NCBI GenBank assembly: GCA_964580285.1
Contig: CAZOKB010000008.1
Coordinates: 1-49,727, forward strand
Origin: an uncultured Bdellovibrionales bacterium
Lineage (GTDB): Bacteria; Patescibacteriota; Minisyncoccia; Moranbacterales; UBA1568
Reading direction: 5' to 3'
DNA: 49,727 nucleotides
Every line of letters begins with the position of its first letter. Position 1 is the first letter of the stretch. The notes beneath the pieces were generated by a model, which saw only the letters and a program-made list of their open reading frames with translations, was not told the DNA's origin and made no database searches. Below, in pieces: positions 7,949-36,846 of the stretch. Made by a program: the position numbers and the translations under genes.

Positions 7949-8176
7949 AGGCAGAAACAGTATACTAAAGTCACTCTAAACTTCCCTGCAGACTCCAATG
8001 GCATGCCCTGGGCTATGAGGGAACCAAGCTCTATGACCATATCTTCGTTTTTATCTGCGCATTCGCCTTCATTTTGATTGGCGTTTTTTTATTACCAAAC
8101 GAAGTGAGTAAAACGAAAGTCAACTTTCGTTTTCGAACGAGTGCCGGTAAAATCAGGGGCATACCTGTTATTGGAA

Positions 8177-8258
8177 GAATAGAGAATATGGGATATAGAA
8201 TGTAGAGTTCACTATTCTACCCTTTCCTCTTTATTCAATATTCCATATTCAACATTCT
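8177..8258. repeat. Degenerate heptamer-repeat palindrome upstream of dnaE
   Basis: gaataga|gaatatg|ggatata|gaatgta ... attcaat|attccat|attcaac|attct. Confidence 0.7.
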
Positions 8259-11200
8259 ATGCAATTTACTCACCTTCACGTCCATACCCACTACACCCTC
8301 CTCACCGCCCTCGGCAAACCGGAAGAGCTTTTGGCGCGTGCCAAAGAAATGGGGCAGACCGCGCTCGCTATTACGGATACCTCCGCTCTCTATGGCGCGG
8401 TCGAATTCTACATGAAGGCTAAGGATTATGGCATCAAGGCCATCATTGGCGCGGAAATCTTTCTCTGCAAAGACCTCACCAGCAAAAACAATACCGCTGA
8501 AGACCGGCGCCGCAACACCCTGGTGCTGCTCGTAAAAAATGAAACGGGCTATAAGAATCTCCTCAAGATCATTTCCATTGCTCAGCTGGATGGCTTCTAC
8601 TACAAAGCCCGCGCCGATAAGAAGCTCCTCCGTCAATACAGCGAGGGCTTGATCGCTCTCTCTGGATCGCTTCAGGGCGAAGTCCCCGCTGAATTTATCT
8701 ACGGAGACTACGAGCGAGCCAAACGCGCTGCCCTCGAGTACCAGGAAATTTTCGGTCCCGGCAATTTCTATCTCGAAGTACAACCCCATTTCGACAATGA
8801 AGCACAAGCCACTGCCAACCAGGGGCTCATTGCTCTTTCTCGAGAAACCGGCATACCGCTCGTTGCCGCCAACGATGTCCACTACGTGCGCCGTGAGGAT
8901 GCCTCGGTCCAAGATACTCTCCTCTGTATCCGCGACAATAAACGGGTCGATGACCATGAACGATTCTCTATGATGTCACTCGATCTCTCACTCCGGAGTA
9001 CTGAAGACATGGTCGAAGCTTTCAAGGATTTTCCGGACGCTATTGAAAACACACAGAAAATTGCCGAGGCTTGCAACTTTTCCTTTACCTTCGGTGTCAA
9101 TCACCTCCCCTCCTACCCCCTCCCTGAAGGAGTAACCGCTGATACCTATCTCCGCAACCTCTGTGAAGAAGGTCTCCGAAAACGTTTTCCTGAACAGGTT
9201 ATTAATGAAGAACAGCGAACTCGACTCAACTACGAACTCGATGTCATTGAGAAAACTGGTTTCGCTTCCTACTTCTTGATCGTCCAGGACTTCGTCAACT
9301 GGGCCAAGAACAACGGCGTCGTCGTCGGTCCGGGCCGCGGTTCGGCCGCCGGTTCCTTTGTCGCTTACCTCACTGGCATCACCAACCTCGATCCCATCAA
9401 GTATGATCTCCTCTTTGAACGCTTCCTTAACCCGGAACGTATCTCGATGCCCGATGTCGATATGGACTTTGCTGACGATCATCGTGAAGACGTCTTGAAC
9501 TACGTCCGTGAGCGCTACGGTGCCGATCACGTCGCACAGATCATCACGTTCGGAACCATGGCCGCTCGAGCAGCGATCCGTGATGTCGGTCGTGCACTCG
9601 GTATTCCGCTCCCCCTCTGCGACCAGACTGCCAAAATGATCCCCATGTTCACGTCGATCAAAAAAGCGCTCGAGGAGGTACCGGAATTTAAAGCGCACTA
9701 TGACTCAAACGCCGAAGTGCGCCGACTCGTAGACAATGCGCAAAAAATCGAGGGGTTGTCGCGTCACACCTCCATGCATGCTTGTGGTGTGGTTATTACG
9801 AAGGATCCCGTAACTGAATACACTCCCCTCCAGCGAGTCTCCGGATCACGCGAAGGTGTGGTGACTCAATACGCTTCTTCAACTAAAGCCAATGCCGTTG
9901 AAAAAATCGGTCTCCTTAAAATGGACTTTCTCGGACTCAAAAACCTCACTATCATCCAGAACACCATTCGTATTATCCGCGCCCTCGGCAAACTTGATGC
10001 CTTCACTACAACCCTCGGTCTCGATCCAGAAAAAGCTTCCGTATCGGATATCATGGACAAACTTCCGCTTGATGATGTGGCTGCCTTCAAGGTACTTCAA
10101 GATGCTCATACCACTGGTGTTTTCCAGCTCGAATCTACCGGCATGAAACGCTACCTCAAGCAACTCAAACCCACCGTCTTCGAAGATATCATCGCTATGG
10201 TCGCCCTCTATCGTCCGGGACCGATGGACTATATTCCCGACTTCATTGGCGGCAAGCACGGTACCAAACAAGTCGAATACCTCCACCCAAAACTCGAACC
10301 GATTTTGAAGAATACGTATGGTGTCGCTGTGTATCAGGAACAACTCATGCAGATCGCCCGTGACCTGGCTGGCTTCTCCCTCGGCGAGGCCGATGTGCTC
10401 CGCAAAGCTGTCGGTAAGAAAATTAAGGAGCTCGTCGCTGAGCAACGCGTCAAATTTGTTAGTGGTTGCGTAAACAACGGCATCAAGAAAGATGTAGCCG
10501 AACACGTGTTCGATTTCATCGAGCCGTTCGCCGGCTACGGCTTCAATCGCTCCCATGCCGCCTGCTACGCGCTCATCGGCTACCAGACCGCTTACCTCAA
10601 GGCCCACTATCCGGCCGAATTCATGGCCGCCCTGCTTACGAGCGACCAGAACGATACCGATCGTATCGCTATTGAAGTCCGTGAAGCCAGGGAAATCGGT
10701 ATTGAGGTCCTCCAACCCGATGTCAACGAAAGCTTTGAGAGTTTCGCTGTGATCCGTGGAGATGATGGTATAGAACGCATCCGCTTTGGACTCCAGGCTA
10801 TCAAGAACGTTGGCTCGGTCTGCGCTGAAGAAATCGTCAAGGAACGCAAGCGTGGAGGAAAATTCAAAAGCCTGGAAGATTTCGTGGAACGCGTACAGAC
10901 CAAAGATCTTAACAAGAAATCTCTTGAAGCACTGGCTAAAGTTGGTGCTCTCGATCAGCTTGGAGAACGTGAACAAATCCTCGAAAGTATTGATGCCATC
11001 GTGCGACACAGCAAACAAGCTTCGACTATCGTAGCGTCTCATACCCAAAGCCTCTTTGGATCGATGCCCTTATCCAAGCCCACCATTCACCTTATCCAGG
11101 CAGCCCCAGCCCCCAAGCAACAAAAACTTTCTTGGGAAAAAGAACTGCTCGGTCTCTATATTACCGATCACCCGGCCTCGGAATACCGTCATTACTTTGC

Positions 11201-11789
11201 CAAAACCACCGTTCCCTTAAACGATTTGGAAAAGCGAGAAAATGAATCCCGTATCCGTATTGGCGGTTTAGTAACAGCCGTCCGCCGAGTCATGACCAAG
11301 AATGGTAATCCTATGTTTTTCATCGGTCTTGAAGATTTAACCGGCCGAACGGAAGTCTTGGTCTTTGGGAAGACCGCCGAACAAACAGAAGGATTTTGGA
11401 AAGAAGATGATATTGTTATTCTTGATGTGCGTATTTCTAACAAAGATGGTCAGCTCCGCTGTATTGCCGAGAGTGCCGAACGTATCTCCTTAGACACTCT
11501 GAAACAGTTCGAACGCGTGCGCGTCACTCACGAGAAAACAGAGACCGAAAAGAAAATGGCTCAAGAAAAACTTGCTTCGGTTCGAAAGCTCGCTATCACC
11601 ATGGACTCGACAGCTGATTCTCACCGTATCGAACACCTCTCCGCCTTTCTGAAACAGGCACCCAAAGGTGATACCAAGGTCATCGTGAAGCTTCATGGAT
11701 CCACTATCGAGACCCCTTTCTGTATCGATCCGAGTAAAGATATCCTTGCCGCTCTCAGTGCTCTTGAAGGAGTAGAATCTGTTTTATAG
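8259..11789 (+). CDS. dnaE: DNA polymerase III alpha subunit
   Basis: PHP domain (HLHVHTHY, ANDVHY), GPGRGSAAGS, MPDVDMDF, GLLKMDFLGL, GFNRSHAACY, C-terminal OB fold. Confidence 0.98.
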   Translation: MQFTHLHVHTHYTLLTALGKPEELLARAKEMGQTALAITDTSALYGAVEFYMKAKDYGIKAIIGAEIFLCKDLTSKNNTAEDRRRNTLVLLVKNETGYKNLLKIISIAQLDGFYYKARADKKLLRQYSEGLIALSGSLQGEVPAEFIYGDYERAKRAALEYQEIFGPGNFYLEVQPHFDNEAQATANQGLIALSRETGIPLVAANDVHYVRREDASVQDTLLCIRDNKRVDDHERFSMMSLDLSLRSTEDMVEAFKDFPDAIENTQKIAEACNFSFTFGVNHLPSYPLPEGVTADTYLRNLCEEGLRKRFPEQVINEEQRTRLNYELDVIEKTGFASYFLIVQDFVNWAKNNGVVVGPGRGSAAGSFVAYLTGITNLDPIKYDLLFERFLNPERISMPDVDMDFADDHREDVLNYVRERYGADHVAQIITFGTMAARAAIRDVGRALGIPLPLCDQTAKMIPMFTSIKKALEEVPEFKAHYDSNAEVRRLVDNAQKIEGLSRHTSMHACGVVITKDPVTEYTPLQRVSGSREGVVTQYASSTKANAVEKIGLLKMDFLGLKNLTIIQNTIRIIRALGKLDAFTTTLGLDPEKASVSDIMDKLPLDDVAAFKVLQDAHTTGVFQLESTGMKRYLKQLKPTVFEDIIAMVALYRPGPMDYIPDFIGGKHGTKQVEYLHPKLEPILKNTYGVAVYQEQLMQIARDLAGFSLGEADVLRKAVGKKIKELVAEQRVKFVSGCVNNGIKKDVAEHVFDFIEPFAGYGFNRSHAACYALIGYQTAYLKAHYPAEFMAALLTSDQNDTDRIAIEVREAREIGIEVLQPDVNESFESFAVIRGDDGIERIRFGLQAIKNVGSVCAEEIVKERKRGGKFKSLEDFVERVQTKDLNKKSLEALAKVGALDQLGEREQILESIDAIVRHSKQASTIVASHTQSLFGSMPLSKPTIHLIQAAPAPKQQKLSWEKELLGLYITDHPASEYRHYFAKTTVPLNDLEKRENESRIRIGGLVTAVRRVMTKNGNPMFFIGLEDLTGRTEVLVFGKTAEQTEGFWKEDDIVILDVRISNKDGQLRCIAESAERISLDTLKQFERVRVTHEKTETEKKMAQEKLASVRKLAITMDSTADSHRIEHLSAFLKQAPKGDTKVIVKLHGSTIETPFCIDPSKDILAALSALEGVESVL

Positions 11790-11867
11790 GAATATCGAAT
11801 GTAGAATATTGAATAGAGTTTCAAATTAAAAGAAATCCATATCCTACATTCTACATTCTCTATTCCC
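11790..11867. repeat. Degenerate heptamer-repeat palindrome between dnaE and miaA
   Basis: gaatatc|gaatgta|gaatatt|gaataga ... catatcc|tacattc|tacattc|tctattc. Confidence 0.7.
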
Positions 11868-23393: not shown

Positions 23394-23870
23394 CTACAAA
23401 ATTTTCATACCATCAATCTTCTCTACTCTTCGAATAAATCTCTCTTCGTTAAGGAACCTTGTCTGTAGAAAAATTTCGATTGCCTTATAAACATCCTTTG
23501 TCTCAATAAAACGCGTAGCAATAGCCAATGCATTGATGTCATCGTGTTCTCTATAGTTTTTTATAATTTCAAAGTCACCGCCATACCAAACACCACATCG
23601 AACATGCGAGTATCTATTTAAAACGATTGACTCACCCATTCCAGACCCTCCAAAAACAATAGCTCTTTGTTTTGGGTACTTCGAAAGCTCACACGCGAGA
23701 GGATGTAATATATCAGGATAATCATCATGCTGATCAAATATCTCTGGACCAAAGTCAGATATACTAAATCCTCTTTCTATTAAAAACAACTTGACGTTCT
23801 CTTTCAAGAAATACCCAGCATGATCACCACCGAGATAAATTAGAGATTTCTCTTTTTCCATAGCTACCAC
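23394..23870 (-). CDS. rpiB: Ribose-5-phosphate isomerase B family protein (Glu-base GGSGxGE type)
   Basis: GGDHAGYFLKE, DDYPD, FGGSGMGESIVLNR, REHDDINAL. Confidence 0.88.
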   Translation of the reverse strand: MVAMEKEKSLIYLGGDHAGYFLKENVKLFLIERGFSISDFGPEIFDQHDDYPDILHPLACELSKYPKQRAIVFGGSGMGESIVLNRYSHVRCGVWYGGDFEIIKNYREHDDINALAIATRFIETKDVYKAIEIFLQTRFLNEERFIRRVEKIDGMKIL

Positions 23871-23872
23871 AA

Positions 23873-25081
23873 CTATACTTTGAATTCATTGACTAAAACT
23901 TCCGTTCCAAGACCGCTTCCAAAAAATCTTTCTTTATCATCAGAAGTAAGTTGCGATGTCCAATTTGAAGCACCGCCATCAATCAAGCTTATTTCTTGGT
24001 CATTACGATTTGTTGCCTTGATCTTGAAGCAAATTCCGTCATAATAACCTATCCCGGCAGTTCTGGATAAATCATAGACGAATCGAACATTCGGGTAGTC
24101 ATTTCTCAGTACCTGAACCTGCTCTCTATCCATCTTCTTTAGTGTACTTATGGCACGATTCATGCTCTTATCCGGATTAAGAAGACTAAAACTATGAATA
24201 TCATCAATTTTTCCTGGCAATCTTATACCAGCAATCTCCAAAATATCAATACCCTTCTTCCGCGTACCCTCAATAACATCCCTTCTACTGATAACCCCTT
24301 CTGCAATAAGACTGTTTATTACATTGATATCCGATAAATAGACCGTGATACTATGTAGAGAATACTCACCCATATTATTCAGTTTTTCAAAACATCCAAG
24401 CCAATAATGCAGGTGCATGAGTTGTTCGTCTTTTTCAAATTCGTATCTGCCGATATCACGACCTGCAGACGTAAGCGTAAATGATGAGAAGTGCTGACGC
24501 AGGTGTTTTTGTGTAAAAACCTGTCCCCTCAATTCTCTGTGTGCATTTGCAAGATGAACGCGATCTATGGCCCGTCTCTCGGAAGAAAACCATCTCTTGT
24601 CATCCATTCGTCTTTTCGCAGACTCTAGGGCCATCACAACTGAAGTATCATTTACAACTTCGACCGGCCTAATCGTTTGTAATATAGTTTTCGGATCGAT
24701 CTTGGTCAAAACACTACTCACTCCAATAGGAGCCACTGGAGAAATCTCAACAAAATCAAAAGAGTCTGGTAAATCCTTTATTAGCATTAACTCCAATTTC
24801 AATCGCTCTTTCGCATCAATATCTGATGGACGAGAAAATCTGTTTTCGCGATAGTTATCCATAAGATCAGAAGCAGAAAGCTCCCTAATCTTTTTCTCAT
24901 ACATATTCATTAAGGCACTCCCAAGTTCCGAAAAACTCAACTCCCCCATCTTCTCCATAGCATTTCTTGTTGGTTCATCGAAACGTTTTTCAATAAGATC
25001 AGCATTCTGCGATTCAACCTTATCATCCTTCGCTTGTTTGACTCCTGCCGGATCCTTATAAAAAGGGTTTTCAATATTCAT
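23873..25081 (-). CDS. Hypothetical protein with class II aaRS (HisRS/HisZ-like) catalytic-core motifs, no anticodon domain
   Basis: HRELRGQVF..HFSSF (motif-2-like), DLSRTAGIGYYDGICF (like the HisRS RGLDYYTG loop), IDGG and GSGLGTE (motif-3-like). Confidence 0.5.
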   Translation of the reverse strand: MNIENPFYKDPAGVKQAKDDKVESQNADLIEKRFDEPTRNAMEKMGELSFSELGSALMNMYEKKIRELSASDLMDNYRENRFSRPSDIDAKERLKLELMLIKDLPDSFDFVEISPVAPIGVSSVLTKIDPKTILQTIRPVEVVNDTSVVMALESAKRRMDDKRWFSSERRAIDRVHLANAHRELRGQVFTQKHLRQHFSSFTLTSAGRDIGRYEFEKDEQLMHLHYWLGCFEKLNNMGEYSLHSITVYLSDINVINSLIAEGVISRRDVIEGTRKKGIDILEIAGIRLPGKIDDIHSFSLLNPDKSMNRAISTLKKMDREQVQVLRNDYPNVRFVYDLSRTAGIGYYDGICFKIKATNRNDQEISLIDGGASNWTSQLTSDDKERFFGSGLGTEVLVNEFKV

Positions 25082-26334
25082 AAGGTACCAACATTATATG
25101 TTATCAATTCATCTAGTCGAGATTTTATTTCCTCGATTTCTTCCATATTTTTCGTAAAATAAGAAAACTCAAAAATCGGGGAAGGGGTGTTTGGGTATGT
25201 CTTCAGCGTATCCCCGATTTTTGCCATGAGTTTGAAATAATTGATGCCTTTGATTTGAGAAAATTTCTCGTATCCATATACACCCAAAAGTACCCCGGGC
25301 GACTGTATGTCAGGATAATAAAGCGCATGATAGTTTATCCCGAACGGACTGAAATCTTTCGGGATAGATTCACCAAGCCAATTCGAATACATAAGATCAA
25401 TCATATCAATGCCATACACTCTATCATACGTCTCATGAATCAGCGCTCCAGCCATCCTCCCAGCAATTTCTATAAGATACGGGATGCCGTCCTTTATTCT
25501 AAATTCCGCATGAAAAGGAGCGTACCCGAAGCCCAATACGTCCACGACATTTTTTAATGCATCCTTAACGGCGGATGATTCAACTTCGCTCAGTTGAGCC
25601 GGGATATAACTTGCCACTTGAGTGAAATACGGCTCTTCCCCCATAATAAACTCTATAGAGCCGACAATCGAAACATCACCGCGAGAGACAAACCCGTCAA
25701 CAGAAATCATTTTTCCTGGTATGTATTCTTCTACAAGCATATTACCTGAAAAATACCGAAATGACTCCCTGATTTCCCGATTCACTGTTTTTGAGATCCT
25801 GTCAGCCAAATCGTCATAATCAAAATTATTGTCACGAATCATAAAGACTCCGTGGCTTGTCGTTCCGAATTGTGGCTTAATAACACAAGGTTTTGGAAAT
25901 CGTTCCAAAACAATACTATCCTCACGATCGTAGATATTGAACGGAGCAAACTTTGGCTGCATCACCTTCCCGGATGTAGCCACTTTTGTTCGCATAGCCA
26001 ACTTATTACTCGAAGTGCACCTTGCTGCCAATTGCCCGATACCATTACAACCCAATAAAGCAGCGAGATCTGCGGTAGCCACCACAAGATCGTCACTAAA
26101 AGTTCCAATAGCATCTATCTTTAAACCATTCTTCTGAATAAAAAAGAATGTTTTCTCTACCATATTTTTGGCGTCAAATACATCGGTAATTATGACGTCG
26201 GTATCCGCAATGTACTTCTTAAAAAAATCCTTAGGCTCGCTTGCCACCATGATGATGCGATAGCCCTTCTCTTTTGCTTTCTTCAGAAGAAATTCTTTTG
26301 CCGTACAGTGTTCAACTAGAAGAATGGTTTTCAT
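25078..26334 (-). CDS. ATP-grasp ligase, L-amino-acid ligase-like
   Basis: NKLAMRTK, PCVIKPQFGTTSHGV, LVEEYIPGKMISVDG, FHAEFRI, LIEIAGRMAG. Confidence 0.88.
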   Translation of the reverse strand: MKTILLVEHCTAKEFLLKKAKEKGYRIIMVASEPKDFFKKYIADTDVIITDVFDAKNMVEKTFFFIQKNGLKIDAIGTFSDDLVVATADLAALLGCNGIGQLAARCTSSNKLAMRTKVATSGKVMQPKFAPFNIYDREDSIVLERFPKPCVIKPQFGTTSHGVFMIRDNNFDYDDLADRISKTVNREIRESFRYFSGNMLVEEYIPGKMISVDGFVSRGDVSIVGSIEFIMGEEPYFTQVASYIPAQLSEVESSAVKDALKNVVDVLGFGYAPFHAEFRIKDGIPYLIEIAGRMAGALIHETYDRVYGIDMIDLMYSNWLGESIPKDFSPFGINYHALYYPDIQSPGVLLGVYGYEKFSQIKGINYFKLMAKIGDTLKTYPNTPSPIFEFSYFTKNMEEIEEIKSRLDELITYNVGTL

Positions 26335-26348
26335 ATTTGATCACATCC

Positions 26349-27368
26349 CTAATTTACAGCACATTCTCCGAGAGATATTATGTTAGATCGTGTATCCAGT
26401 TTCACCACAACTCCCAATGGAAAAGTCAGGATAGGTTTCGTATGTCCGCAATCCACATTCGTTAAAGTCGGTATATTATACTTTTTGGAAATCTCTAGGA
26501 AAATACTTTCTAGAGATCTCTTCTTTTCATTTATCTCTTCAAAGCTGCCGCTTGGTTTAGCAAAAATAAGTCCATTTATCTTGCTGAAAATTCCCTTTCG
26601 CTCCAGCTCAATGAGATATCTTTCATACCAATCCGTAGATAATCCTTCTTCCTCAAGAAAAAGAATGGCTCCGGTTACATCGAAGAAACCATCTTCGTGC
26701 ATCAGCATCGAAAATGTCTGCAAGTTTCCGCCGAAAAGAAGCCCCTCTGTTTCCATCTTTGGGCCAAATGACTTCATTGCTGGTGATTCTTGCATAATCA
26801 GATTCTTCGTATCATCCCTCCCCCAGTACTGATTATCTATCGTGTACATTTTCGAAAATGGAAACGTATCACCGCATCCCGCCTGACCGCTGACAATTTT
26901 TTCAAAATGTTCAAACGTAAACGAAACAGCCCCTTCAAACTCACCGAAGCTTGGAAGTAGTGTTGGGCCATGAAAAGTTACTAATTCGCTTTTTGACGTA
27001 ATCATCAATAAAAGAGTCGTGATATCAGAATAACCACAAAATATTTTTGGGTTCCTTCTTATAAGCTCATAATCGAGCAGGGAAAGCACCGCATTTGCCG
27101 TTAACCCCCCGGTTGAACAAACAATGGCGGAAACTTCAGAATCAAGAAAAGCATCGTGAATATCTGCCGCCCTTTGCTCGGCCGTTCCACCACTATATCC
27201 ATCAGTCGCCAATGCACTTGGCATCATTTTTACCTTGTAACCTTTTCTTTCCAAGAAGCCTATTGCTCTTTGTGTTCTTTCGGAAAATCTCACAATATCA
27301 GAAGACGGGCTTACGATAGCTATCGTGTCACCCCTCTTCAGCGCTCTCGGTTTGATGTAATTTTTCAT
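26349..27368 (-). CDS. S66 family serine peptidase (LD-carboxypeptidase / microcin C immunity MccF-like)
   Basis: LKRGDTIAIVSPSS, GYSDIT (catalytic Ser), LFGGNL, LFLEE (Glu), CGHTKP (His). Confidence 0.92.
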   Translation of the reverse strand: MKNYIKPRALKRGDTIAIVSPSSDIVRFSERTQRAIGFLERKGYKVKMMPSALATDGYSGGTAEQRAADIHDAFLDSEVSAIVCSTGGLTANAVLSLLDYELIRRNPKIFCGYSDITTLLLMITSKSELVTFHGPTLLPSFGEFEGAVSFTFEHFEKIVSGQAGCGDTFPFSKMYTIDNQYWGRDDTKNLIMQESPAMKSFGPKMETEGLLFGGNLQTFSMLMHEDGFFDVTGAILFLEEEGLSTDWYERYLIELERKGIFSKINGLIFAKPSGSFEEINEKKRSLESIFLEISKKYNIPTLTNVDCGHTKPILTFPLGVVVKLDTRSNIISLGECAVN

Positions 27369-28189
27369 ATTTCAACTGTTAAAAAAAGTTCGGCCTCATC
27401 CTGAATCAAGCGTTTCTGATATAAAAATATCGAATAGCCCGCATACTTTAAATTCTCATTAAAAAGCTTGTAGAAATATATCGCTCGCTCTCTGATTTTA
27501 TTCTCCTGCGCTTCGGTCAAATCTGAAAACCTACCTCCTAGCAAGATATCAACGTAAGCTTCAATCTCATTTGCAACATCTAAATACGCATGATCTTCCT
27601 CGTAAAAAAGCTCAAGTATCTTCGCATTTTTATCAGCAACAGTCTCAAACAAGGCTTTCCAGGATTTTTTGTCTCTGATTGTTAAAGGCGTTCCAATCGT
27701 CTCCGATACTTTCTCAACAACATCCTTCGGCGGAGTTTCTCGATAATAGATAGGGACAGCTGCGAGAATGCCGCCTGGTTTCAAAACACGCAGGTACTCG
27801 GAAACCGCTTTTTCTTTATCAGATATAAAAGAAGTCACATTGCTACACCAGACCAAATCGAAAGAATCAGCCTCAAACGGGAGATCCGCAGCATCAGCTC
27901 TCAAAAAATCGACTCTCTCATGAGCCCCTTGAACTTCAGCATATACCTTCGCTTCAGCGATGGAAGATTCATTAACATCTACTCCGATTACCTCGCATCC
28001 CGTCAAGAGACTAAGATTCACACTTGTGAACCCGGTATTACTACCAATTTCAAGTACTTTTTTCGAGGCATTTAAAAAAGCATTAACCGCGACAGAATGT
28101 ACCGTCTTTATGCCCCCAGATGGCCGATTTCTCTCTTTGATAAAACCAACAAATTCGGAATAATTCATTTGATGAACATTCTGCGCCAT
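27365..28189 (-). CDS. Class I SAM-dependent methyltransferase
   Basis: VLEIGSNTG, IGVDVN, ADAADLPFEADSFDLVW, RVLKPGG; start reset to ATG 28189, 11 nt after the upstream stop. Confidence 0.9.
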   Translation of the reverse strand: MAQNVHQMNYSEFVGFIKERNRPSGGIKTVHSVAVNAFLNASKKVLEIGSNTGFTSVNLSLLTGCEVIGVDVNESSIAEAKVYAEVQGAHERVDFLRADAADLPFEADSFDLVWCSNVTSFISDKEKAVSEYLRVLKPGGILAAVPIYYRETPPKDVVEKVSETIGTPLTIRDKKSWKALFETVADKNAKILELFYEEDHAYLDVANEIEAYVDILLGGRFSDLTEAQENKIRERAIYFYKLFNENLKYAGYSIFLYQKRLIQDEAELFLTVEI

Positions 28190-28200
28190 ACGATATATAT

Positions 28201-29358
28201 TTACGGTTTTGGGAGGTGATGTCCTCGGGGAATATGTGTTGCTTCCCATATATACGGTAACTGCAATACCCATTGTACATACCGCTGCCATCCGAGACCG
28301 AAGCCCGAAGTTTTTTGGTAATTCCCCTGAAGCCTCGTCTGAATATACGGATCGTAGTCTCCTTGCGGCAGATTGAATGTCTTCGCCTTTTCCTTCAACG
28401 CTTCCGAGCTCGAAATGCGCGTTCCGCTTCCGACCGTCTCACGATACCCACACAGGATAAAATCCGCGTTCTCGGCGAGCGGAGTGCCGTCCTCGTTCTC
28501 ATTAAGTTCGTTGTGATAGAAAGGAATCTGCAGCAACGGGAATTTCGTCACGATGACGTGCTTGCCGAATATCTCCGTAAGTCTTATTTCTTCCCATGCA
28601 CCGAAATTCTTCAGACTGAATTCCTTGTACACATCATTTCCGGTCTCCCTATGGAGAGCCTCAAGCGCCTCCTTGAAGGTGATCGTAACGATATTTCCCT
28701 CTAAAAAAGCACCTGGAAGCTCTTCAAACTTTGCATCGCCGATAAAATATTTCAGACTTTCTCTCTCATTGACTATGAGGTATTTCGTAATATGACGCAT
28801 CAAACCGAGAAAGATATCGATATTCTGGTCGAAAGAAACCTTCCCCTCGAATTCGATGTGCTGGAATTCCGAAAGGTGACAAAAGTCCGCTTTTTCTTTC
28901 CTGAATGAATTGTATATGGAAAATACTTTATCGATATTCTGTTTCAGAAGCCGGAGCTCGAGATAGAATTGTGAGCTTTCCGAAAGGAAAACATTCCGCT
29001 CATTATCGAACCAGGCTACATCAACTGGGAGCGTATCGGTCGTGTAATCCAGCATTTTCCCGGCATACACTTCTCCCGGGGATGAAATCATGAGCGTCGT
29101 AAGGGGAAGATTGCACCACTCGGCACCGATCGATCGGAAATACTCCACCGCTCCGAAAAATACACCGTTGTCTATCTTATGGAGATGATAAAAATATTCT
29201 GGATCCTGAAAAATCTTTGCAATCCTTCCTGTTGTGATTCCTTCGCTGAAATCGAATTCTCTGACGTCTTCAATGGGCTGGAATACGTTATTTCCGTTGT
29301 ACCTGATCTGTTTCTTGCCGCCATCGGATAGAGCTGAATACGGGCTAAGATTATTCAT
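28201..29358 (-). CDS. AsnRS/AspRS-like class IIb catalytic domain lacking the anticodon-binding domain (asparagine-synthetase AS-AR-like architecture)
   Basis: LSESSQFYLE, motif 2 FRKEKADFCHLSEFQHIEFE, ETVGSGTR, motif 3 SGFGLGWQRYVQW; no recognisable N-terminal OB fold. Confidence 0.85.
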   Translation of the reverse strand: MNNLSPYSALSDGGKKQIRYNGNNVFQPIEDVREFDFSEGITTGRIAKIFQDPEYFYHLHKIDNGVFFGAVEYFRSIGAEWCNLPLTTLMISSPGEVYAGKMLDYTTDTLPVDVAWFDNERNVFLSESSQFYLELRLLKQNIDKVFSIYNSFRKEKADFCHLSEFQHIEFEGKVSFDQNIDIFLGLMRHITKYLIVNERESLKYFIGDAKFEELPGAFLEGNIVTITFKEALEALHRETGNDVYKEFSLKNFGAWEEIRLTEIFGKHVIVTKFPLLQIPFYHNELNENEDGTPLAENADFILCGYRETVGSGTRISSSEALKEKAKTFNLPQGDYDPYIQTRLQGNYQKTSGFGLGWQRYVQWVLQLPYIWEATHIPRGHHLPKP

Positions 29359-32338: not shown

Positions 32339-32983
32339 TTATTTCCACCCGAGTACCTCCGCTTCTGAATACACACATTTATTGACCCGGTTACACTGAG
32401 ATTTCATAGCCGTCACATACGCCGCGTTTGAGGCAAAGCCACTACTATCCGCTGGAGCCCATGTGCCCCAGTACACAAAACTCACTACCGAAACCGTATC
32501 TGGAGCTGTTGTCCGCTCAATGTTTACGTAGCGCTTATACGCAATACCATTCAGAACAACGGCATTAGTGACCGCATTGGCGCGCAAGGTTGCGTTACAG
32601 TTACTGCGGCACATGCGTGTATTTCCCAAGTATTGATCGATAATCCGCGCTCCCGTTGACCACTTTGATCCAGAAAGGTTGACCAGGCAGTGTTCCCTGG
32701 TTACGGTTGGATCAAAGAGTTCATCCGCATTACTGGTGGCCACTTCAAACCCACTGCCACCGGCAGCAAAATCATTATCCCGGATATTCCGCACAATTTC
32801 TGCTCCTTCCTGAGCGAGCTGCGTCCCCACAACATAATCCCGGTTCCCTCGTTCATTGGAACGGCTACTATAGAGCAAGCTCAGAGCAGTTAAAACACCC
32901 ACGGTGATGACTGCTGCCGCCAGAATCACTTCTCCGATAGAAAAACCGGGGAGTTGCTTTGGTGGTATATGTCGTCTTAACAT
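32339..32983 (-). CDS. Type IV minor pilin (PilV-like)
   Basis: G|FSIGEVILAAAVITVGVL, QLAQEGAEIVRNIRD; start uncertain (32983 or 33016). Confidence 0.85.
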   Translation of the reverse strand: MLRRHIPPKQLPGFSIGEVILAAAVITVGVLTALSLLYSSRSNERGNRDYVVGTQLAQEGAEIVRNIRDNDFAAGGSGFEVATSNADELFDPTVTREHCLVNLSGSKWSTGARIIDQYLGNTRMCRSNCNATLRANAVTNAVVLNGIAYKRYVNIERTTAPDTVSVVSFVYWGTWAPADSSGFASNAAYVTAMKSQCNRVNKCVYSEAEVLGWK

Positions 32984-33036
32984 AATTTTTGTTTTGATTA
33001 ACTCTCCTCTGGTCATTCTGATCCGCTTGCGTCAGA

Positions 33037-33094
33037 TGTCATTCCGAGCGAAGTCGAGGAATCTCCATATTCCCTATTCATTATTCCTCATTCT
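33037..33094. repeat. REP-like element with heptamer tail
   Basis: tgtcattccgagcgaagtcgaggaatctcc followed by atattcc|ctattca|ttattcc|tcattct. Confidence 0.6.
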
Positions 33095-33099
33095 CTGCC

Positions 33100-33621
33100 C
33101 TACGGGCACGTTGTTCCAGCTACATCCTTGACTTGTCCGCCCGGATACACGCAGACCGAATAGGTTGTTGATCCTTTGCTCAACTGGATATTGATCGGGG
33201 TCGCATTCCCATTCGGGTCAAGCTCTCCCCGCGGTACCGTAAAGAAAAATTCATTGCTATCCGAAGCAAAGGTAACTCCATTCTCTAAAGACATAGTCAT
33301 GCCCGGAATAGCTGTTGAGGCGGACATTCCTGCACTACAACTAGTGCCAGTTCGGTAAACATACCTAAACTGAAAAACAACATCCATAGATGTAATAGAT
33401 ATCACCCCAAACTTACAGGGAACATTCGTGCCAATCTGTTTACCTGTCAGGGCATAGTTCTGCATTTCCCGAATCGCCGCCGCTACCTTTCTGGCCTGGC
33501 CCTCCACAGCCTTGCGCTCTTTACCGGAACCAAAAGAGACGATCGTAACAGCGGTAACAATACCAATAATGGCCATCACCACCATGATCTCAATCAGCGT
33601 AAACCCTCTTCTATGCATCAT
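33100..33621 (-). CDS. Type IV minor pilin (FimT/GspH-like)
   Basis: MMHRRG|FTLIEIMVVMAIIGIV, FTVPRG, SVCVYPGG. Confidence 0.88.
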   Translation of the reverse strand: MMHRRGFTLIEIMVVMAIIGIVTAVTIVSFGSGKERKAVEGQARKVAAAIREMQNYALTGKQIGTNVPCKFGVISITSMDVVFQFRYVYRTGTSCSAGMSASTAIPGMTMSLENGVTFASDSNEFFFTVPRGELDPNGNATPINIQLSKGSTTYSVCVYPGGQVKDVAGTTCP

Positions 33622-33649
33622 ATTTTTTTGTATGGTTCTTTATTGGTAT

Positions 33650-33742
33650 TGTCATTCCGATCCCCCTCCGCCAGTTGGCGGATGGCGGACGAGAAATCTC
33701 CCTATTCCACATTCTATATTCTCTCCCTTCCATTCTACCTTC
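33650..33742. repeat. REP-like composite element with heptamer tail
   Basis: tgtcattccga...tccgcca-gt-tggcgga...gagaaatctc followed by cctattc|cacattc|tatattc|tctccct|tccattc|taccttc. Confidence 0.6.
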
Positions 33743-33753
33743 TTATTGGGAGA

Positions 33754-33782
33754 TTGACAAAGTCTCTCTTTTCTGCTATCGT
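33754..33782 (+). promoter_or_regulatory. Sigma70 promoter TTGACA-17-TATCGT (TGn) for the PEP-CTERM gene
   Basis: Read directly; AGGAGG RBS at 33854-33859. Confidence 0.65.
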
Positions 33783-33864
33783 GCGCTCAATTGGAAAGGA
33801 GCGTTCACGAGCGCTTTTTTCAAGAGTTTTTTCCACACCCACATGCACTCAATAGGAGGTCGTC

Positions 33865-34590
33865 ATGCTGAAAAGACTGTTTAGTATCATCTTGCTCGCT
33901 TTGAGCCTGCAGGTCCAAGCCGCTCCGGTTCTCCTCGAGGACTGGACCGATTTTTCCGACTGGACGCTCGGCACCCTGAGCAATCCGGGTCGCTTCACCA
34001 GCCAGAGCTCGGTAACGTCTTTTGGTCACGCTTTCACCCCGACCGAGGGCAGTAAGCTGCTCCGCATTACCGGCGGGTTCGACGCTCGTGAGCCATCGAT
34101 CATCTACCGGTCATTCCATTTCAATGACAGCATCCTCGCCTTCGACTGGTTCACGATCTCCCGGGACTCGCTGCCGGATAACGATGCCTCCTATTTTTTG
34201 TTGAGCAAGGACGGAGTCACTTTCACCGCCTACCTCTTGGCGGATGTGGCTTCGCTCGGCGGCATTACCGGCACGGCCACCGGCTGGAACACCAGTTACC
34301 TCAACCTCCTCGGGAGCGGCGACCTCTTTGTCGGCTTTGCGGCTATCGACACAGGCATTGAAGGTGGGGCAATCTTCTTCGGTACGGACAATCTCCGTCT
34401 CGTCGATGAGATCCCTGGTACTGCGCCATCGCCCGATGGCAAAGTGACCCAGGTGACCACGTTCGATTTTGGTCCCAGCACTCCGCCTCCGGGAGGTGCT
34501 GTTCCCGAACCGGGTAGCGCCTTCCTGGTACTCGCCGGCCTCCTGGGTATCGGCGGCGCTGCTCGCCGTAAGCAAGACCGCCTCCACTGA
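33865..34590 (+). CDS. Secreted PEP-CTERM sorting-domain protein
   Basis: Signal peptide MLKRLFSIILLALSLQVQA; C-terminal VPEPGSAFLVLAGLLGIGGAARRK (VPEP + TM + basic cluster) after a Pro/Gly/Thr linker. Confidence 0.92.
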   Translation: MLKRLFSIILLALSLQVQAAPVLLEDWTDFSDWTLGTLSNPGRFTSQSSVTSFGHAFTPTEGSKLLRITGGFDAREPSIIYRSFHFNDSILAFDWFTISRDSLPDNDASYFLLSKDGVTFTAYLLADVASLGGITGTATGWNTSYLNLLGSGDLFVGFAAIDTGIEGGAIFFGTDNLRLVDEIPGTAPSPDGKVTQVTTFDFGPSTPPPGGAVPEPGSAFLVLAGLLGIGGAARRKQDRLH

Positions 34591-34609
34591 GACCAATGTG
34601 TCTCCCCAC

Positions 34610-34643
34610 AAGGGCTACCCCACAAGGTAGCCCTTTTCTTTTT
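34610..34643 (+). terminator. Rho-independent terminator of the PEP-CTERM gene
   Basis: aagggctacc-ccacaa-ggtagccctt followed by ttcttttt. Confidence 0.8.
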
Positions 34644-34657
34644 CCCGTCACTTTTAA

Positions 34658-35455
34658 CTACATCCACACTAGACCGTACTGGAAAAAACCCAGACCGGAA
34701 AGAAGAAAATAAAGGAAGGTCCCTATAACCAGAAAAGGACCAAAAGGGACTCGTGTTTGCATACCTGCTTGTTTACGCAGCAGCAGAAAAACTGAGAAGA
34801 GTGCTCCGGCCGCGAACGAGAGCGTGAGAGCGAAGAGTACTCCCTTCATACCCACTGCCAGACCGATAATTGCCGCAAGCCACGCATCCCCCCACCCCAT
34901 CCACGTCTCCTGAGAAAAAAACGCTAATCCCGCAAAAAATCCCCAGGCTACCAGCGCTCCAATCAAACCCGAAAGCGTCCGACCATCAAAAGAAAGCAAT
35001 GTATCGGTTGAAACAGTCCAATCAAGTAAAAGTAGGAAAAAAAGTGTCCATACCACACTCGCCTGCAGCATAATGACCGGTATTTCCATCGTCTTGCCAT
35101 CATAGAGTGCAATCACTATAAAGAACGAGAAGAGACCAAGGAGCCACACCGTCTGTATCCAAGCGCTTGTCTCGACCGGATTAAAAAAGAGTGCAATGGT
35201 AGCGGCATACACTATACCGGTCATCACTTCAACCGCTGGATAGCGCCAGGCAATAGGCTGCCGGCACCCTCGGCATTTCCCACGAAGCAGCAGGAAAGAA
35301 AGAATGGGGATATTATCATACCAACGGATAAGCGCACCGCATTGTGGGCATACTGACCGACCATGTACAAAATCTTCGCCCCGCTCCATGCGGAGCGCCA
35401 CAACATTCAAAAAACTCCCTACAATAATCCCAAAAAGAAAAAAGAAGAGTACCAT
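34658..35455 (-). CDS. pilD: Prepilin peptidase
   Basis: GSFLNVVALR, RSVCPQCG, WYDNIPILSF..RGKCRGC, MGWGDAWL, VPFGPFL. Confidence 0.95.
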   Translation of the reverse strand: MVLFFFLFGIIVGSFLNVVALRMERGEDFVHGRSVCPQCGALIRWYDNIPILSFLLLRGKCRGCRQPIAWRYPAVEVMTGIVYAATIALFFNPVETSAWIQTVWLLGLFSFFIVIALYDGKTMEIPVIMLQASVVWTLFFLLLLDWTVSTDTLLSFDGRTLSGLIGALVAWGFFAGLAFFSQETWMGWGDAWLAAIIGLAVGMKGVLFALTLSFAAGALFSVFLLLRKQAGMQTRVPFGPFLVIGTFLYFLLSGLGFFQYGLVWM

Positions 35456-35465
35456 AGAGCCAACC

Positions 35466-35825
35466 CTATCTCTTCTTAAAAAGTTTTTCGAGTATCCATA
35501 CCAACATTTCTATTCCAGCCCAACAGAGAGCTATCGAGAGAGCGAATCCGGCCACGGAAAACTCCACCATAGGTTGATGCAGATCGAGCAAGAAAGATCT
35601 CGGGAAAAAAGAAAGGGAACCACTCACTGCGGACAGATCAAAAGCCACAAAGCTGAGCGGTAATCCGAACCATACGGCTTGCAGGCCAGCTTTCGTGGTA
35701 ACTGGCATACTGGATACCCAAAGCGTTGCCACAACCAGCCCCACTGAAAACAAGAACAACAGGAGGTGTTTAGGACACCTCCTGTTTTGTACAGCCTTGA
35801 GAAGACGAGACATTATAAATTTCAT
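35466..35825 (-). CDS. Hypothetical 2-TM membrane protein
   Basis: Two hydrophobic segments; packed in the pil operon without overlap. Confidence 0.6.
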   Translation of the reverse strand: MKFIMSRLLKAVQNRRCPKHLLLFLFSVGLVVATLWVSSMPVTTKAGLQAVWFGLPLSFVAFDLSAVSGSLSFFPRSFLLDLHQPMVEFSVAGFALSIALCWAGIEMLVWILEKLFKKR

Positions 35826-35843
35826 GAGAACACTGAGTTCAAT

Positions 35844-36281
35844 TTAACAACCCGTTGGGTAGCCATCCGTGGTTAAGGCGCTATCTGAAAACACACCGGT
35901 CATGGAAACATAGGTGGCTACATTGCACGCAGTTACTGGTAGTCCAGCAGGAGTCACTTCGATAGACGGCAACGAAGAAGCGCAATCGGTATTTACCACA
36001 TACGCCACACTCGTGGCTTTCATATCGGCCGCGTTCGGCAAATTAGAACCAATCACTGGGCTACAGATATCGCTCCCTTCTGTCGTCTGGAGCACATTCG
36101 ATGACTGATCACAGCAAACACCAATGGCCTGTACCATACTAGAAACAGTCGACTTGTACGCTGCTACAGTGGCCTTGTTTCTAGCGTTGCTCAAGCTAAC
36201 GAGCACGATAGAGGCGAGAATACCGATGATCGCAATAACGATCAGGAGTTCGATAAGGGTGAAACCTTTTTGGTTTTTCAT
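35844..36281 (-). CDS. Type IV major-type pilin, copy B (145 aa)
   Basis: MKNQKG|[20 protein letters not shown]; start reset to ATG 36281. Confidence 0.93.
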
Positions 36282-36834
36282 AAAATAATACTTACTTATA
36301 CATACAAGCTGCCGAACTACTGCCTCCCCCCCCAGAACTTGCTCACTCATTCTGCCTGCCGAGTCTCCTGAAAAAGGGTTTTCGGCAGACATAAGAACAA
36401 GCAAGCTAGCATCCAGATGGATAACCAGCGGTTGTCAATCCTGCATTACTGAAAATACCGGTTGAGGAAACATAGGTAGCTGCATTGCACCCTGTAATCG
36501 GAAGACCCGCTGGGGTCACCGTCAAGCTTGGGTTCGCTGTGTTACACGCTGTGTTCAAGCCGTACGTTACTCCAGTAGCTTTCATCTGAGTAGCAGTTGG
36601 CAGGTTCACACTGAGGGCTGGGTTACATACATCAGATCCCGCTGTCGTCTGCAAGGTGTTCGTAGAGTTATCACAGCAGAGAGTTACCGCTGGAATCAAG
36701 CTCGACAGAGTCGACTTGTACGCTGCTACAGTGGCCTTGTTTCTAGCGTTGCTCAAGCTCACGAGCACGATAGAGGCGAGAATACCGATGATCGCAATAA
36801 CGATCAGGAGTTCGATAAGGGTGAAACCTTTTTG
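36147..36834. repeat. 126-bp direct repeat (36147-36272 and 36709-36834, one mismatch) covering the 5' part of both pilins
   Basis: Aligned by eye: 125/126 identical; mismatch 36198 a vs 36760 c; period 562 bp. Confidence 0.9.
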
Positions 36835-36846
36835 AGTTTTATTCAT
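36406..36846 (-). CDS. Type IV major-type pilin, copy A (146 aa)
   Basis: MNKTQKG|[20 protein letters not shown]; strong AGGAGGTG RBS upstream. Confidence 0.95.

Follow-up and report, generated by a model that had tools for sequence, protein, structure and literature searches.

A predicted PEP-CTERM surface protein encoded antisense within the type IV pilus locus of a Moranbacteria-like lineage

Introduction

PEP-CTERM proteins have been described from bacteria that have an outer membrane as well as genes for exopolysaccharide (EPS), always together with EpsH and with a median of eight PEP-CTERM proteins (Haft 2006, PMC1569441). A gene for a protein of this type (the PEP gene) lies antisense within a type IV pilus locus in a 49,727-nt stretch of DNA, contig CAZOKB010000008.1, which is referred to at its full length as the window and which we assign to the Patescibacteria or Candidate Phyla Radiation (CPR). 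The locus raises the question of how such a gene came to be in such a lineage, what its product does and whether its sorting signal is used. Patescibacteria are generally regarded as lacking an outer membrane. They depend on attachment to other cells, and type IV pili are the best-supported attachment device; to our knowledge, few candidate adhesins of CPR bacteria are known.

The answer that we consider rather probable is that the PEP gene encodes a PEP-CTERM adhesin resembling lectins and carbohydrate-binding modules (CBMs), which was gained once, long ago, from a non-CPR bacterium, was then retained vertically in the pilus locus and is transcribed autonomously. The PEP-CTERM protein described here represents an unexpected phylum and context for a known protein type. 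The PEP gene is conserved and under purifying selection, belongs in situ to the better-transcribed genes of the locus, varies between strains together with the minor pilin gene, and is therefore a concrete and testable candidate for an adhesion factor of an uncultured lineage from wastewater. Its PEP-CTERM signal is bona fide, with VPEP invariant, and occurs in a phylum for which the literature searched does not report this sorting system. Either the 'outer membrane plus EPS' rule is too narrow for exosortase-type sorting, or the motif serves some other purpose.

The PEP Gene and Its Product

The PEP gene is an intact open reading frame (ORF) of 241 amino acids at 33865-34590 on the plus strand, between pilD and the gene for a GspH/FimT-like minor pilin; nearly all genes around it are on the minus strand. 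A first-pass annotation of this DNA had described a complete expression unit made up of a TTGACA-17-TATCGT promoter, an AGGAGG ribosome-binding site, a signal peptide, a VPEP-transmembrane (TM)-RRK tail and a strong terminator, and all of these are present at 33754-34645. The opposite-strand position between pilD and a FimT-like pilin was borne out by the domain matches of both neighbours. The convergent neighbour is the prepilin peptidase PilD (34658..35455, minus strand; A24_N_bact, 1e-32; Peptidase_A24, 8e-9) and the divergent one is the minor pilin, a prepilin (33100..33621, minus strand; TIGR01708, 1e-14; N_methyl, 1.6e-9).

From its N-terminus the protein is made up of a Sec signal peptide, then a beta-sandwich domain, a linker rich in Pro and Gly and finally a PEP-CTERM tail. 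The predicted Sec-type signal peptide (residues 1-19; 33865..33921, plus strand) has a K/R n-region, a hydrophobic core with a helix predicted at residues 2-14, and a cleavage site after VQA/AQA; its sequence is MLKRLFSIILLALSLQVQA, followed by AP, and A19 is invariant across the family. The Pro/Gly/Ser-rich linker (residues 183-212; 34411..34500, plus strand) is variable in the alignment, except for the PP preceding the tail. The tail (34501..34590, plus strand; VPEPGSAFLVLAGLLGIGGAARRKQDRLH) is laid out as VPEP-GSAFLVLAGLLGIGGAA-RRK followed by the stop codon, with a predicted helix at 216-240. It scores above the cut-offs of both PF07589 (22.3 bits, cut-off 20.7, residues 212-236 of 241) and TIGR02595 (19.6 bits, cut-off 16, residues 213-237 of 241). 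Everything expected of a PEP-CTERM domain was found, namely an above-cut-off score at the extreme C-terminus, the PEP motif, the TM segment, the basic cluster and an N-terminal signal peptide. The prepilin cleavage/methylation motif (PF07963 / TIGR02532) gave no match in the PEP protein, and three neighbouring pilins match this motif or PilV models. The PEP protein is accordingly predicted to be neither a type IV pilin nor a pseudopilin, its N-terminus being a Sec type I signal.

The mature domain (33922..34410, plus strand) was modelled with AlphaFold2. The model taken was that from a 50-sequence alignment (pLDDT 78.6); a run with 13 close sequences reached a pLDDT of 55.6 and was not used. 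The model has strands at residues 44-180, a disordered Pro/Gly linker with low pLDDT at 201-215 and a C-terminal helix. In a Foldseek search against the PDB its neighbours were CBM61, CBM27, CBM11, CBM16, CBM22, the phloem lectin PP2 and MAM domains, together with lectin domains of phage tail spikes and an adhesin domain of a gingipain (probability 1.00; E-values between 1e-5 and 1e-3; TM-scores modest, at most 0.58 on the target). The modelled domain has a jelly-roll beta-sandwich fold like that of solved CBMs and lectins. No Pfam CBM or lectin model matched the PEP protein. The PEP protein is likely to be a pilus-associated polysaccharide-binding adhesin.

Transcription and the Predicted Divergent Promoter Pair

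RNA contigs over the PEP gene were found in four metatranscriptome runs from three studies of sludge or wastewater. One contig extends from 33824 to 34615 at a word depth of 33.6 and has its 3' end (34615) inside the terminator; two others cover 33802-34161 and 34132-34430 at a depth of 17-33, a further one covers 33945-34328 at a depth of 8, and low-depth pieces cover 33800-34539. The 5' ends at 33800-33824 lie 10-35 nt downstream of where the promoter would place the transcription start, and the contigs starting at 33800 and 33802 cross the leader hairpin into the gene. In the runs that gave the first contig and the following pair, X17 and X25, which come from one sample, coverage of pilD was zero and that of the minor pilin gene was absent or low, and the major pilin genes reached a depth of 118-190. 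Taken together, these data support the PEP gene as a self-contained transcribed unit on the opposite strand.

The PEP gene is preceded by a sigma-70-type promoter (33754..33782, plus strand) with the -35 hexamer TTGACA at 33754-33759, a 17-nt spacer and a TGn-TATCGT element (-10 at 33777-33782). It matches the consensus at 10 of 12 positions and has a TG directly 5' of the -10. Both hexamers are kept in all six aligned lineages, and the remaining spacer region is unalignable. A second predicted promoter, also with 10 of 12 matches, points toward the minor-pilin operon (33732..33760, minus strand; -35 TTGTCA at 33760-33755, -10 TAGAAT at 33737-33732), and its -35 overlaps that of the PEP promoter by 5 nt. 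A consensus scan called such back-to-back promoters in five lineages (the window, L005, L009, L094 and L096), each time with overlapping -35 hexamers at a 6-nt offset and in the form TTGACA-17-TATNNT on the plus and TTGTCA-17-TA....T on the minus strand. The intergenic DNA is unalignable between lineages save for ATTGACAAA, the -10 region and a CCATTCTACC block 17 nt leftward, which is the -10 of the promoter toward the minor-pilin operon. Because the -35 boxes overlap, the two units are probably co-regulated or competing. The PEP gene and the minor pilins would then form a divergent pair with one common compact control region, probably subject to co-regulation or mutual exclusion.

The 5' leader (33789..33864, plus strand) contains a weak hairpin with a U-run (33794-33831) and the ribosome-binding site AGGAGG (33854-33859), 5 nt before the ATG. 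A TTCAAGAGTTTTTTCCA block in the leader is kept in the close family only. The hairpin folds no better than shuffled sequences (z = -0.75), and an attenuator is therefore not claimed. A riboswitch or other known RNA was also considered; an Rfam search at E <= 1 returned just a sub-threshold terminator look-alike. The intrinsic terminator (34610..34645, plus strand) has a 10-bp G+C-rich stem (34610-34635) and a T-run, and it folds at -19.9 kcal/mol (z = -4.35), a value equalled by 0 of 200 shuffles. L001, L005 and L009 all retain it, and the L001 copy carries a compensatory G>A / C>T pair.

Distribution and Evolution of the PEP Gene

The best GTDB matches of the LigA protein encoded in the window (54-71% identity) are from metagenome-assembled genomes (MAGs) titled Candidatus Moranbacteria, Moraniibacteriota or Patescibacteria group, and by this comparison the CPR assignment of the window stands. 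The window sequence is present in wastewater, activated-sludge and river metagenomes.

Among 5.8 billion protein clusters only 12 homologues of the PEP protein were found at E <= 1e-3, all of them 59-93% identical. An exhaustive profile search of 1.84 billion representatives recovered the family as one cluster, and the next three hits were P0013, P0014 and P0018 (E 7e-17 to 2e-10; 25-32% identity in tblastn). Every homologue with readable flanks, from 93% down to 25% identity, occupies the same slot on the opposite strand between minor pilin and pilD. Among them are L001-L013 and L098-L102 (59-100% identity) and also two deep orthologues: L096 (P0018), where the PEP protein is 25% identical, PilD 53% and the pilin 49%, and L094 (P0014), where the PEP protein is 32% identical and an extra PaaX_M-like gene is present, as it is in L009. 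This PaaX_M-domain protein of 184-190 amino acids is encoded between the PEP gene and pilD (L009 8449-9003, L094 4100-4672), has no counterpart in the window and could be a local regulator. Contig L097 (P0013), too short to reveal the pilus context, encodes two tandem PEP-CTERM paralogues with near-identical tails at 342-2163. A metagenome scan with alignment A1 added five more loci, all in the same context.

The comparison of the pilD-fimT junction, proposed in the first-pass annotation, also revealed where the gene is missing. In eleven GTDB Moranbacteria loci (PilD 42-51% identical) the gap between pilD and the pilin gene is 17-194 nt long and holds no gene, and a hidden Markov model of the family found no member in 80 GTDB loci. 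Since all readable homologues share one slot and this site is empty in the eleven loci, the simplest reading of these sequences would be a single old gain in the ancestor of a sub-clade, followed by vertical retention. The concern that PEP-CTERM might be ancestral in the lineage applies to the sub-clade and does not extend to Moranbacteria as a whole. In L018, a Moranbacteria MAG without a PEP gene, a small GIY-YIG-like ORF (365-619) lies upstream of the minor pilin, and what lies 5' of the minor-pilin gene is therefore variable.

The raised G+C content that the first-pass annotation had noticed, at about 60% in one line of sequence, holds for the whole gene. The GC content of the PEP gene is 0.594 and that of its third codon positions (GC3) is 0.707; the other 47 genes of the window have a mean GC3 of 0.495 (sd 0.061, maximum 0.61), which gives z = 3.5. 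Outside the pilus loci, other bacteria have a loose family of PEP-CTERM/PEPxxWA-CTERM proteins of about 200-255 amino acids with a homologous mature domain (profile E 1e-31 to 1e-55). The self-contained expression unit, the foreign-looking composition, the empty site in eleven loci and the domain family in non-CPR bacteria together make acquisition from outside the lineage plausible. No donor could be identified: outside the locus the nearest relatives reach about 23-31% identity and lie mostly on short contigs, one of them being labelled Pseudomonadota. On the question raised in the first-pass annotation, whether the best hits are non-CPR, the domain family does occur in other bacteria, for example in a Pseudomonadota MAG, and the top hits outside the protein's own cluster are the deep orthologues from the same locus.

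The dN/dS ratio of the PEP gene is 0.13 between the window and L001 and 0.15-0.21 in two other comparisons, with dS saturated between the window and L009, and is similar to that of the adjacent minor pilin gene. The gene is fast-evolving, and these ratios indicate purifying selection. Between the window and JGI contig L001 (20.7 kb), about 370 of the 404 differences lie inside 32.7-35.9 kb. This strain-variable block (32700..35875) comprises the 3' part of pilV, the minor pilin gene, the PEP gene, pilD and the start of the gene for a 119-aa protein. Inside it dS is 0.71 for the minor pilin gene, 0.85 for the PEP gene and 0.38 for pilD; LigA and the pilins flanking the block are identical, and PilC, PilT and PilB are nearly so (dS 0-0.008). 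Positive selection as the source of the strain differences was ruled out by the high dS and a dN/dS of about 0.13, and the allele was therefore imported by homologous recombination from a related lineage. The minor pilin gene, the PEP gene and pilD are exchanged between strains as one block.

Origin, Sorting and Function

The sequence of events that we favour can be outlined as follows. The PEP gene would have been gained once by the ancestor of a Moranbacteria-like sub-clade of wastewater and activated sludge, most likely from a non-CPR bacterium bearing PEP-CTERM proteins, and would have landed in the short spacer between pilD and the minor pilin gene in the type IV pilus locus. Afterwards it would have been inherited vertically as a fixed, fast-evolving component of the locus under purifying selection. 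It would be transcribed alone from its strong sigma-70-type promoter, with the -35 overlap leading to joint regulation with the pilin promoter or to competition. The product would be a Sec-exported surface protein in which a lectin/CBM-like beta-sandwich is carried on a short Pro/Gly stalk with a genuine PEP-CTERM tail. As an adhesin it may bind host or floc-matrix polysaccharide and act alongside the pilus in attachment. At a minimum the tail would anchor the protein in the membrane, and it may also be cleaved and transferred by an exosortase-type enzyme encoded elsewhere.

Several observations weigh against this account. No exosortase gene was found in the window, as the first-pass annotation had also stated, or in a further 10 kb to its left, about 60 kb in all (Pfam on all window ORFs and the precomputed Pfam table of a syntenic contig); to the right, other contigs with the end gene break off near the same point. 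Apart from the orthologues at this locus, neither the window nor 1.5 Mb of fetched loci contained a further PEP-CTERM tail. Organisms known to carry PEP-CTERM proteins usually encode several of them and have an EpsH homologue as well as EPS genes and an outer membrane (PMC1569441). The case for carbohydrate binding is one of fold similarity with modest TM-scores, and the physical or functional tie to the pilus is drawn from position, shared promoter and co-replacement. The RNA contigs carry no strand information, and sense transcription is therefore inferred from the contig boundaries. Finally, GC3 is high in all orthologues including the deepest (0.62-0.71, against 0.41-0.66 in the flanks), and such persistence is not predicted by ancient transfer followed by amelioration; possible causes are expression-linked codon choice, recurrent import and biased gene conversion at a recombination hot spot.

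Whether the tail is more than an anchor is the point on which the readings differ most. In an 18-sequence alignment reaching down to 25% identity, 20 of the 241 columns are invariant, and V213-P214-E215-P216 are among them; with a per-column chance of 20/241, four given consecutive columns would all be invariant with a probability of about 5e-5. The TM segment varies in the same alignment, and the motif is therefore under direct constraint, as expected if it is recognised by something. The strict VPEP conservation suggests a cognate exosortase-type sorting enzyme encoded elsewhere. The best-surviving alternative, to which we give a clearly smaller probability than to the account above, is that the lineage has no exosortase and the tail is a TM anchor only, which would keep the lectin-like domain on the surface of a cell lacking an outer membrane, VPEP being kept structurally (for example as a helix cap at the membrane interface) or by inheritance. 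It agrees with the failure to find an exosortase or more than one PEP tail, with the long C-terminal helix (216-240) in the model and with the literature searched, in which PEP-CTERM is reported only from bacteria having both EPS genes and an outer membrane (PMC1569441), no report links exosortase to Patescibacteria or to a monoderm, and joint mentions of PEP-CTERM and Parcubacteria are incidental. However, a plain anchor needs no VPEP, which is the most conserved block in orthologues with about 70-75% of their residues replaced while the TM segment varies freely, and about 60 kb is a small fraction of a genome. Because of the conserved VPEP we lean slightly to an unseen sorting enzyme. A fuller proposal is tentative and in our estimate rather doubtful: a working sorting pathway of the PEP-CTERM/exosortase type, in a Moranbacteria-like sub-clade that lacks an outer membrane, would serve one highly expressed lectin-like adhesin, which would be wired to the minor pilins by the shared back-to-back promoters and exchanged with them between strains, as a pilus-coupled module for attachment to hosts or flocs. 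If true, it would be the first PEP-CTERM system described in the CPR.

A different history, in which the slot is a landing pad and PEP-CTERM genes have been imported repeatedly from GC-richer donors, would account for both the low identity of the deep orthologues and the persistent high GC3, which is raised in every lineage. At depth the PEP protein diverges more than its flanks (25-32% against 43-53% identity), the block containing the gene is exchanged between strains, and L097 has two tandem copies. Yet the deep copies are mutual best matches in the exhaustive search, ahead of all non-CPR PEP-CTERM proteins, and the promoter pair is conserved with them; at the strain level the donor was another CPR allele, because the pilin gene and pilD were replaced too. 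We regard recurrent replacement as improbable.

The first-pass annotation had proposed an autonomous, horizontally acquired cassette. A horizontal origin agrees with the foreign composition, the empty site in eleven loci and the non-CPR domain family, but the gene is neither recent nor free-standing. A recent selfish or neutral cassette that came to lie in the pilus operon by chance, to which a GC3 of 0.71 against 0.49, its own promoter and terminator, an adjoining REP-like element and the empty site in other Moranbacteria would all be congenial, is very unlikely. The PEP gene occupies the same slot in lineages with LigA and PilD 53-78% and PEP proteins 25-65% identical, its dN/dS of 0.13-0.21 points to purifying selection, and in five lineages its promoter is interlocked with that of the minor pilins. 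At the junctions there was no ORF for a transposase or integrase, no flanking direct repeat and no target duplication, and no close homologue exists outside the locus in the 5.8 billion clusters or the 1.84 billion representatives. The gene is present in every sub-clade member with visible flanks, and the only elements nearby are small and REP-like.

An assembly chimera of a GC-richer bacterial fragment with a CPR contig, for which the composition jump and the breaks of assembly graphs near the gene in some runs could be cited, can be dismissed: the identical protein with both flanks occurs on at least seven Logan contigs that were assembled independently and come from different studies, a 12.3-kb stretch of an independent assembly is 99.75% identical to the window, a single DNA contig from another study spans 33624-35129, and both junctions recur in JGI, NCBI and ENA assemblies of diverged relatives. 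The assembly graphs of several samples branch near the PEP gene because alleles co-occur.

Comparison With Known Systems

With the PEP-CTERM/exosortase (EpsH, XrtA) system of diderm EPS producers (PMC1569441), the PEP protein shares the signal peptide, the VPEP-TM-Arg/Lys cluster arrangement, a small and poorly annotated mature domain, and an environmental biofilm or floc habitat. It differs in its Patescibacteria host, in the one copy seen (two in L097) against the median of eight (PMC1569441), and in the position of its gene, which is not near EPS genes but within a type IV pilus locus; no exosortase and no EPS locus were seen in the about 60 kb inspected. The promoter is of the sigma-70 type, whereas many PEP-CTERM genes are under sigma-54/RpoN control (PMC1569441, PMC9850573).

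PepA of Zoogloea/Aquincola exemplifies the floc-forming PEP-CTERM proteins (NF033554; PMC9850573; Gao 2018 as cited in PMC11393006). PepA and the PEP protein are of similar size (about 240-260 amino acids), have the same signal-domain-PEP-CTERM architecture and both occur in activated sludge. The match to NF033554 is near-full-length (residues 39-237) and weak (19.1 bits, E 9e-4) against a cut-off of 80, and the PEP protein is therefore not a member of the PepA family. The non-CPR PEP-CTERM beta-sandwich proteins, such as P0122, annotated as coming from a Pseudomonadota MAG, share with it the motifs GFE..W..., FDWFF..D..P.ND, GW.T and DN in addition to the tail. They are only 23-31% identical, and the gene for P0122 adjoins that for a Calx-beta/cadherin protein and has no pilus genes around it.

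Adhesins are also encoded in other type IV pilus loci, as are PilY1 in the fimU-pilVWXY1E operon and the lectin-module pilins of Streptococcus sanguinis, and minor pilins prime and tip the pilus. As in these systems, a lectin-type, adhesin-like domain is encoded beside minor pilins. Unlike them, the PEP protein has no prepilin leader and no PilY1 or vWA domain, its gene is on the opposite strand, and it has a C-terminal membrane or sorting anchor instead of being built into the pilus. Sorting by the exosortase family works without an outer membrane in the PGF-CTERM/archaeosortase ArtA system of archaea and with the XrtG-type exosortases of Gram-positive bacteria, which is what the PEP gene would need here. 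The motif is PGF in the ArtA system and PEP in the present one, and no such enzyme was found for this lineage in the about 60 kb.

Other Features of the Window

Beyond the minor pilin, the pilus locus continues with PilV-like and GspJ/PilW-like pilins and LigA, and beyond PilD with two major pilins, PilC, PilT, PilB, PilO, PilN and PilM. Between pilD and the major pilins (35466-35825) lies the gene for the 119-aa two-TM protein, which has no Pfam match, is 100% identical between strains and was found in L001-L004 and L010-L013. The major pilins are tandem paralogues (35844-36846) with a common 278-nt repeat at 78% identity, and in all metatranscriptomes no other part of the locus is transcribed as highly (depth up to about 190). 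Compared with strain L001, the 146-aa major pilin has seven non-synonymous changes and one synonymous change. The remaining genes of the window form a compact housekeeping set (L7/L12, L10, S16, SMC, RNase III, NusB, DnaE, MiaA, GatB, GatA, ThyA, DHFR, L1, L11, NusG and ClpB).

A low-GC island at 23394-29358 (GC 0.37-0.45; GC3 0.31-0.41 in five of six genes) encodes RpiB, a 402-aa protein without a Pfam match, an ATP-grasp enzyme, a peptidase S66 (LD-carboxypeptidase/MccF-like), an S-adenosylmethionine-dependent methyltransferase and a 385-aa class-II aminoacyl-tRNA synthetase-like protein. It is present in strains L001, L002 and L010 and absent from L005, L006 and L009, where LigA is immediately followed by GatC-GatA. 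A recent island is more credible here than at the PEP gene, and these genes may constitute a small peptide or aminoacyl-nucleotide modification cluster.

Between the divergent promoter and the start codon of the minor pilin is a palindromic element (33651..33700) resembling repetitive extragenic palindromes (REP) or miniature inverted-repeat transposable elements (MITE), with the structure GTCATTCCGA...hairpin...CGAGAAATCTC. The first-pass annotation had noted it to the left of the PEP gene. Its core palindrome (33668-33681) is unique within the window, which rules out a REP repeat based on the core alone; the longer element does have relatives, at 33038-33066 in the window and at another position in L005. 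Elements of this type at 33010-33066 and 33651-33700 flank the minor pilin, in the form GTCATTCCGA...GC hairpin...CGAGGAATCTC and in GTCATCCCG... variants, and in L005 they lie inside the 5' untranslated region and the 3' region of the PEP gene (9937-9975 and 10899-10995). As their sites differ between the window and L005, the elements are therefore mobile between lineages.

Many MAGs titled 'uncultured Bdellovibrionales', 'Candidatus Saccharibacteria' or 'Gammaproteobacteria' (L014, L017, L019, L021 and others; third-party annotation co-assemblies) have Moranbacteria/Paceibacteria-like LigA and pilus loci, and their titles appear unreliable. An AT-rich CATTCTACATTCTATATTCTCT-like motif occurs in either orientation in three intergenic regions of the window (8173-8257, 11789-11866 and 33706-33739), on both sides of DnaE and upstream of the PEP promoter, where the -10 of the divergent pilin promoter falls within it. 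The motif may represent an element specific to the lineage that is associated with promoters or bound by a protein.

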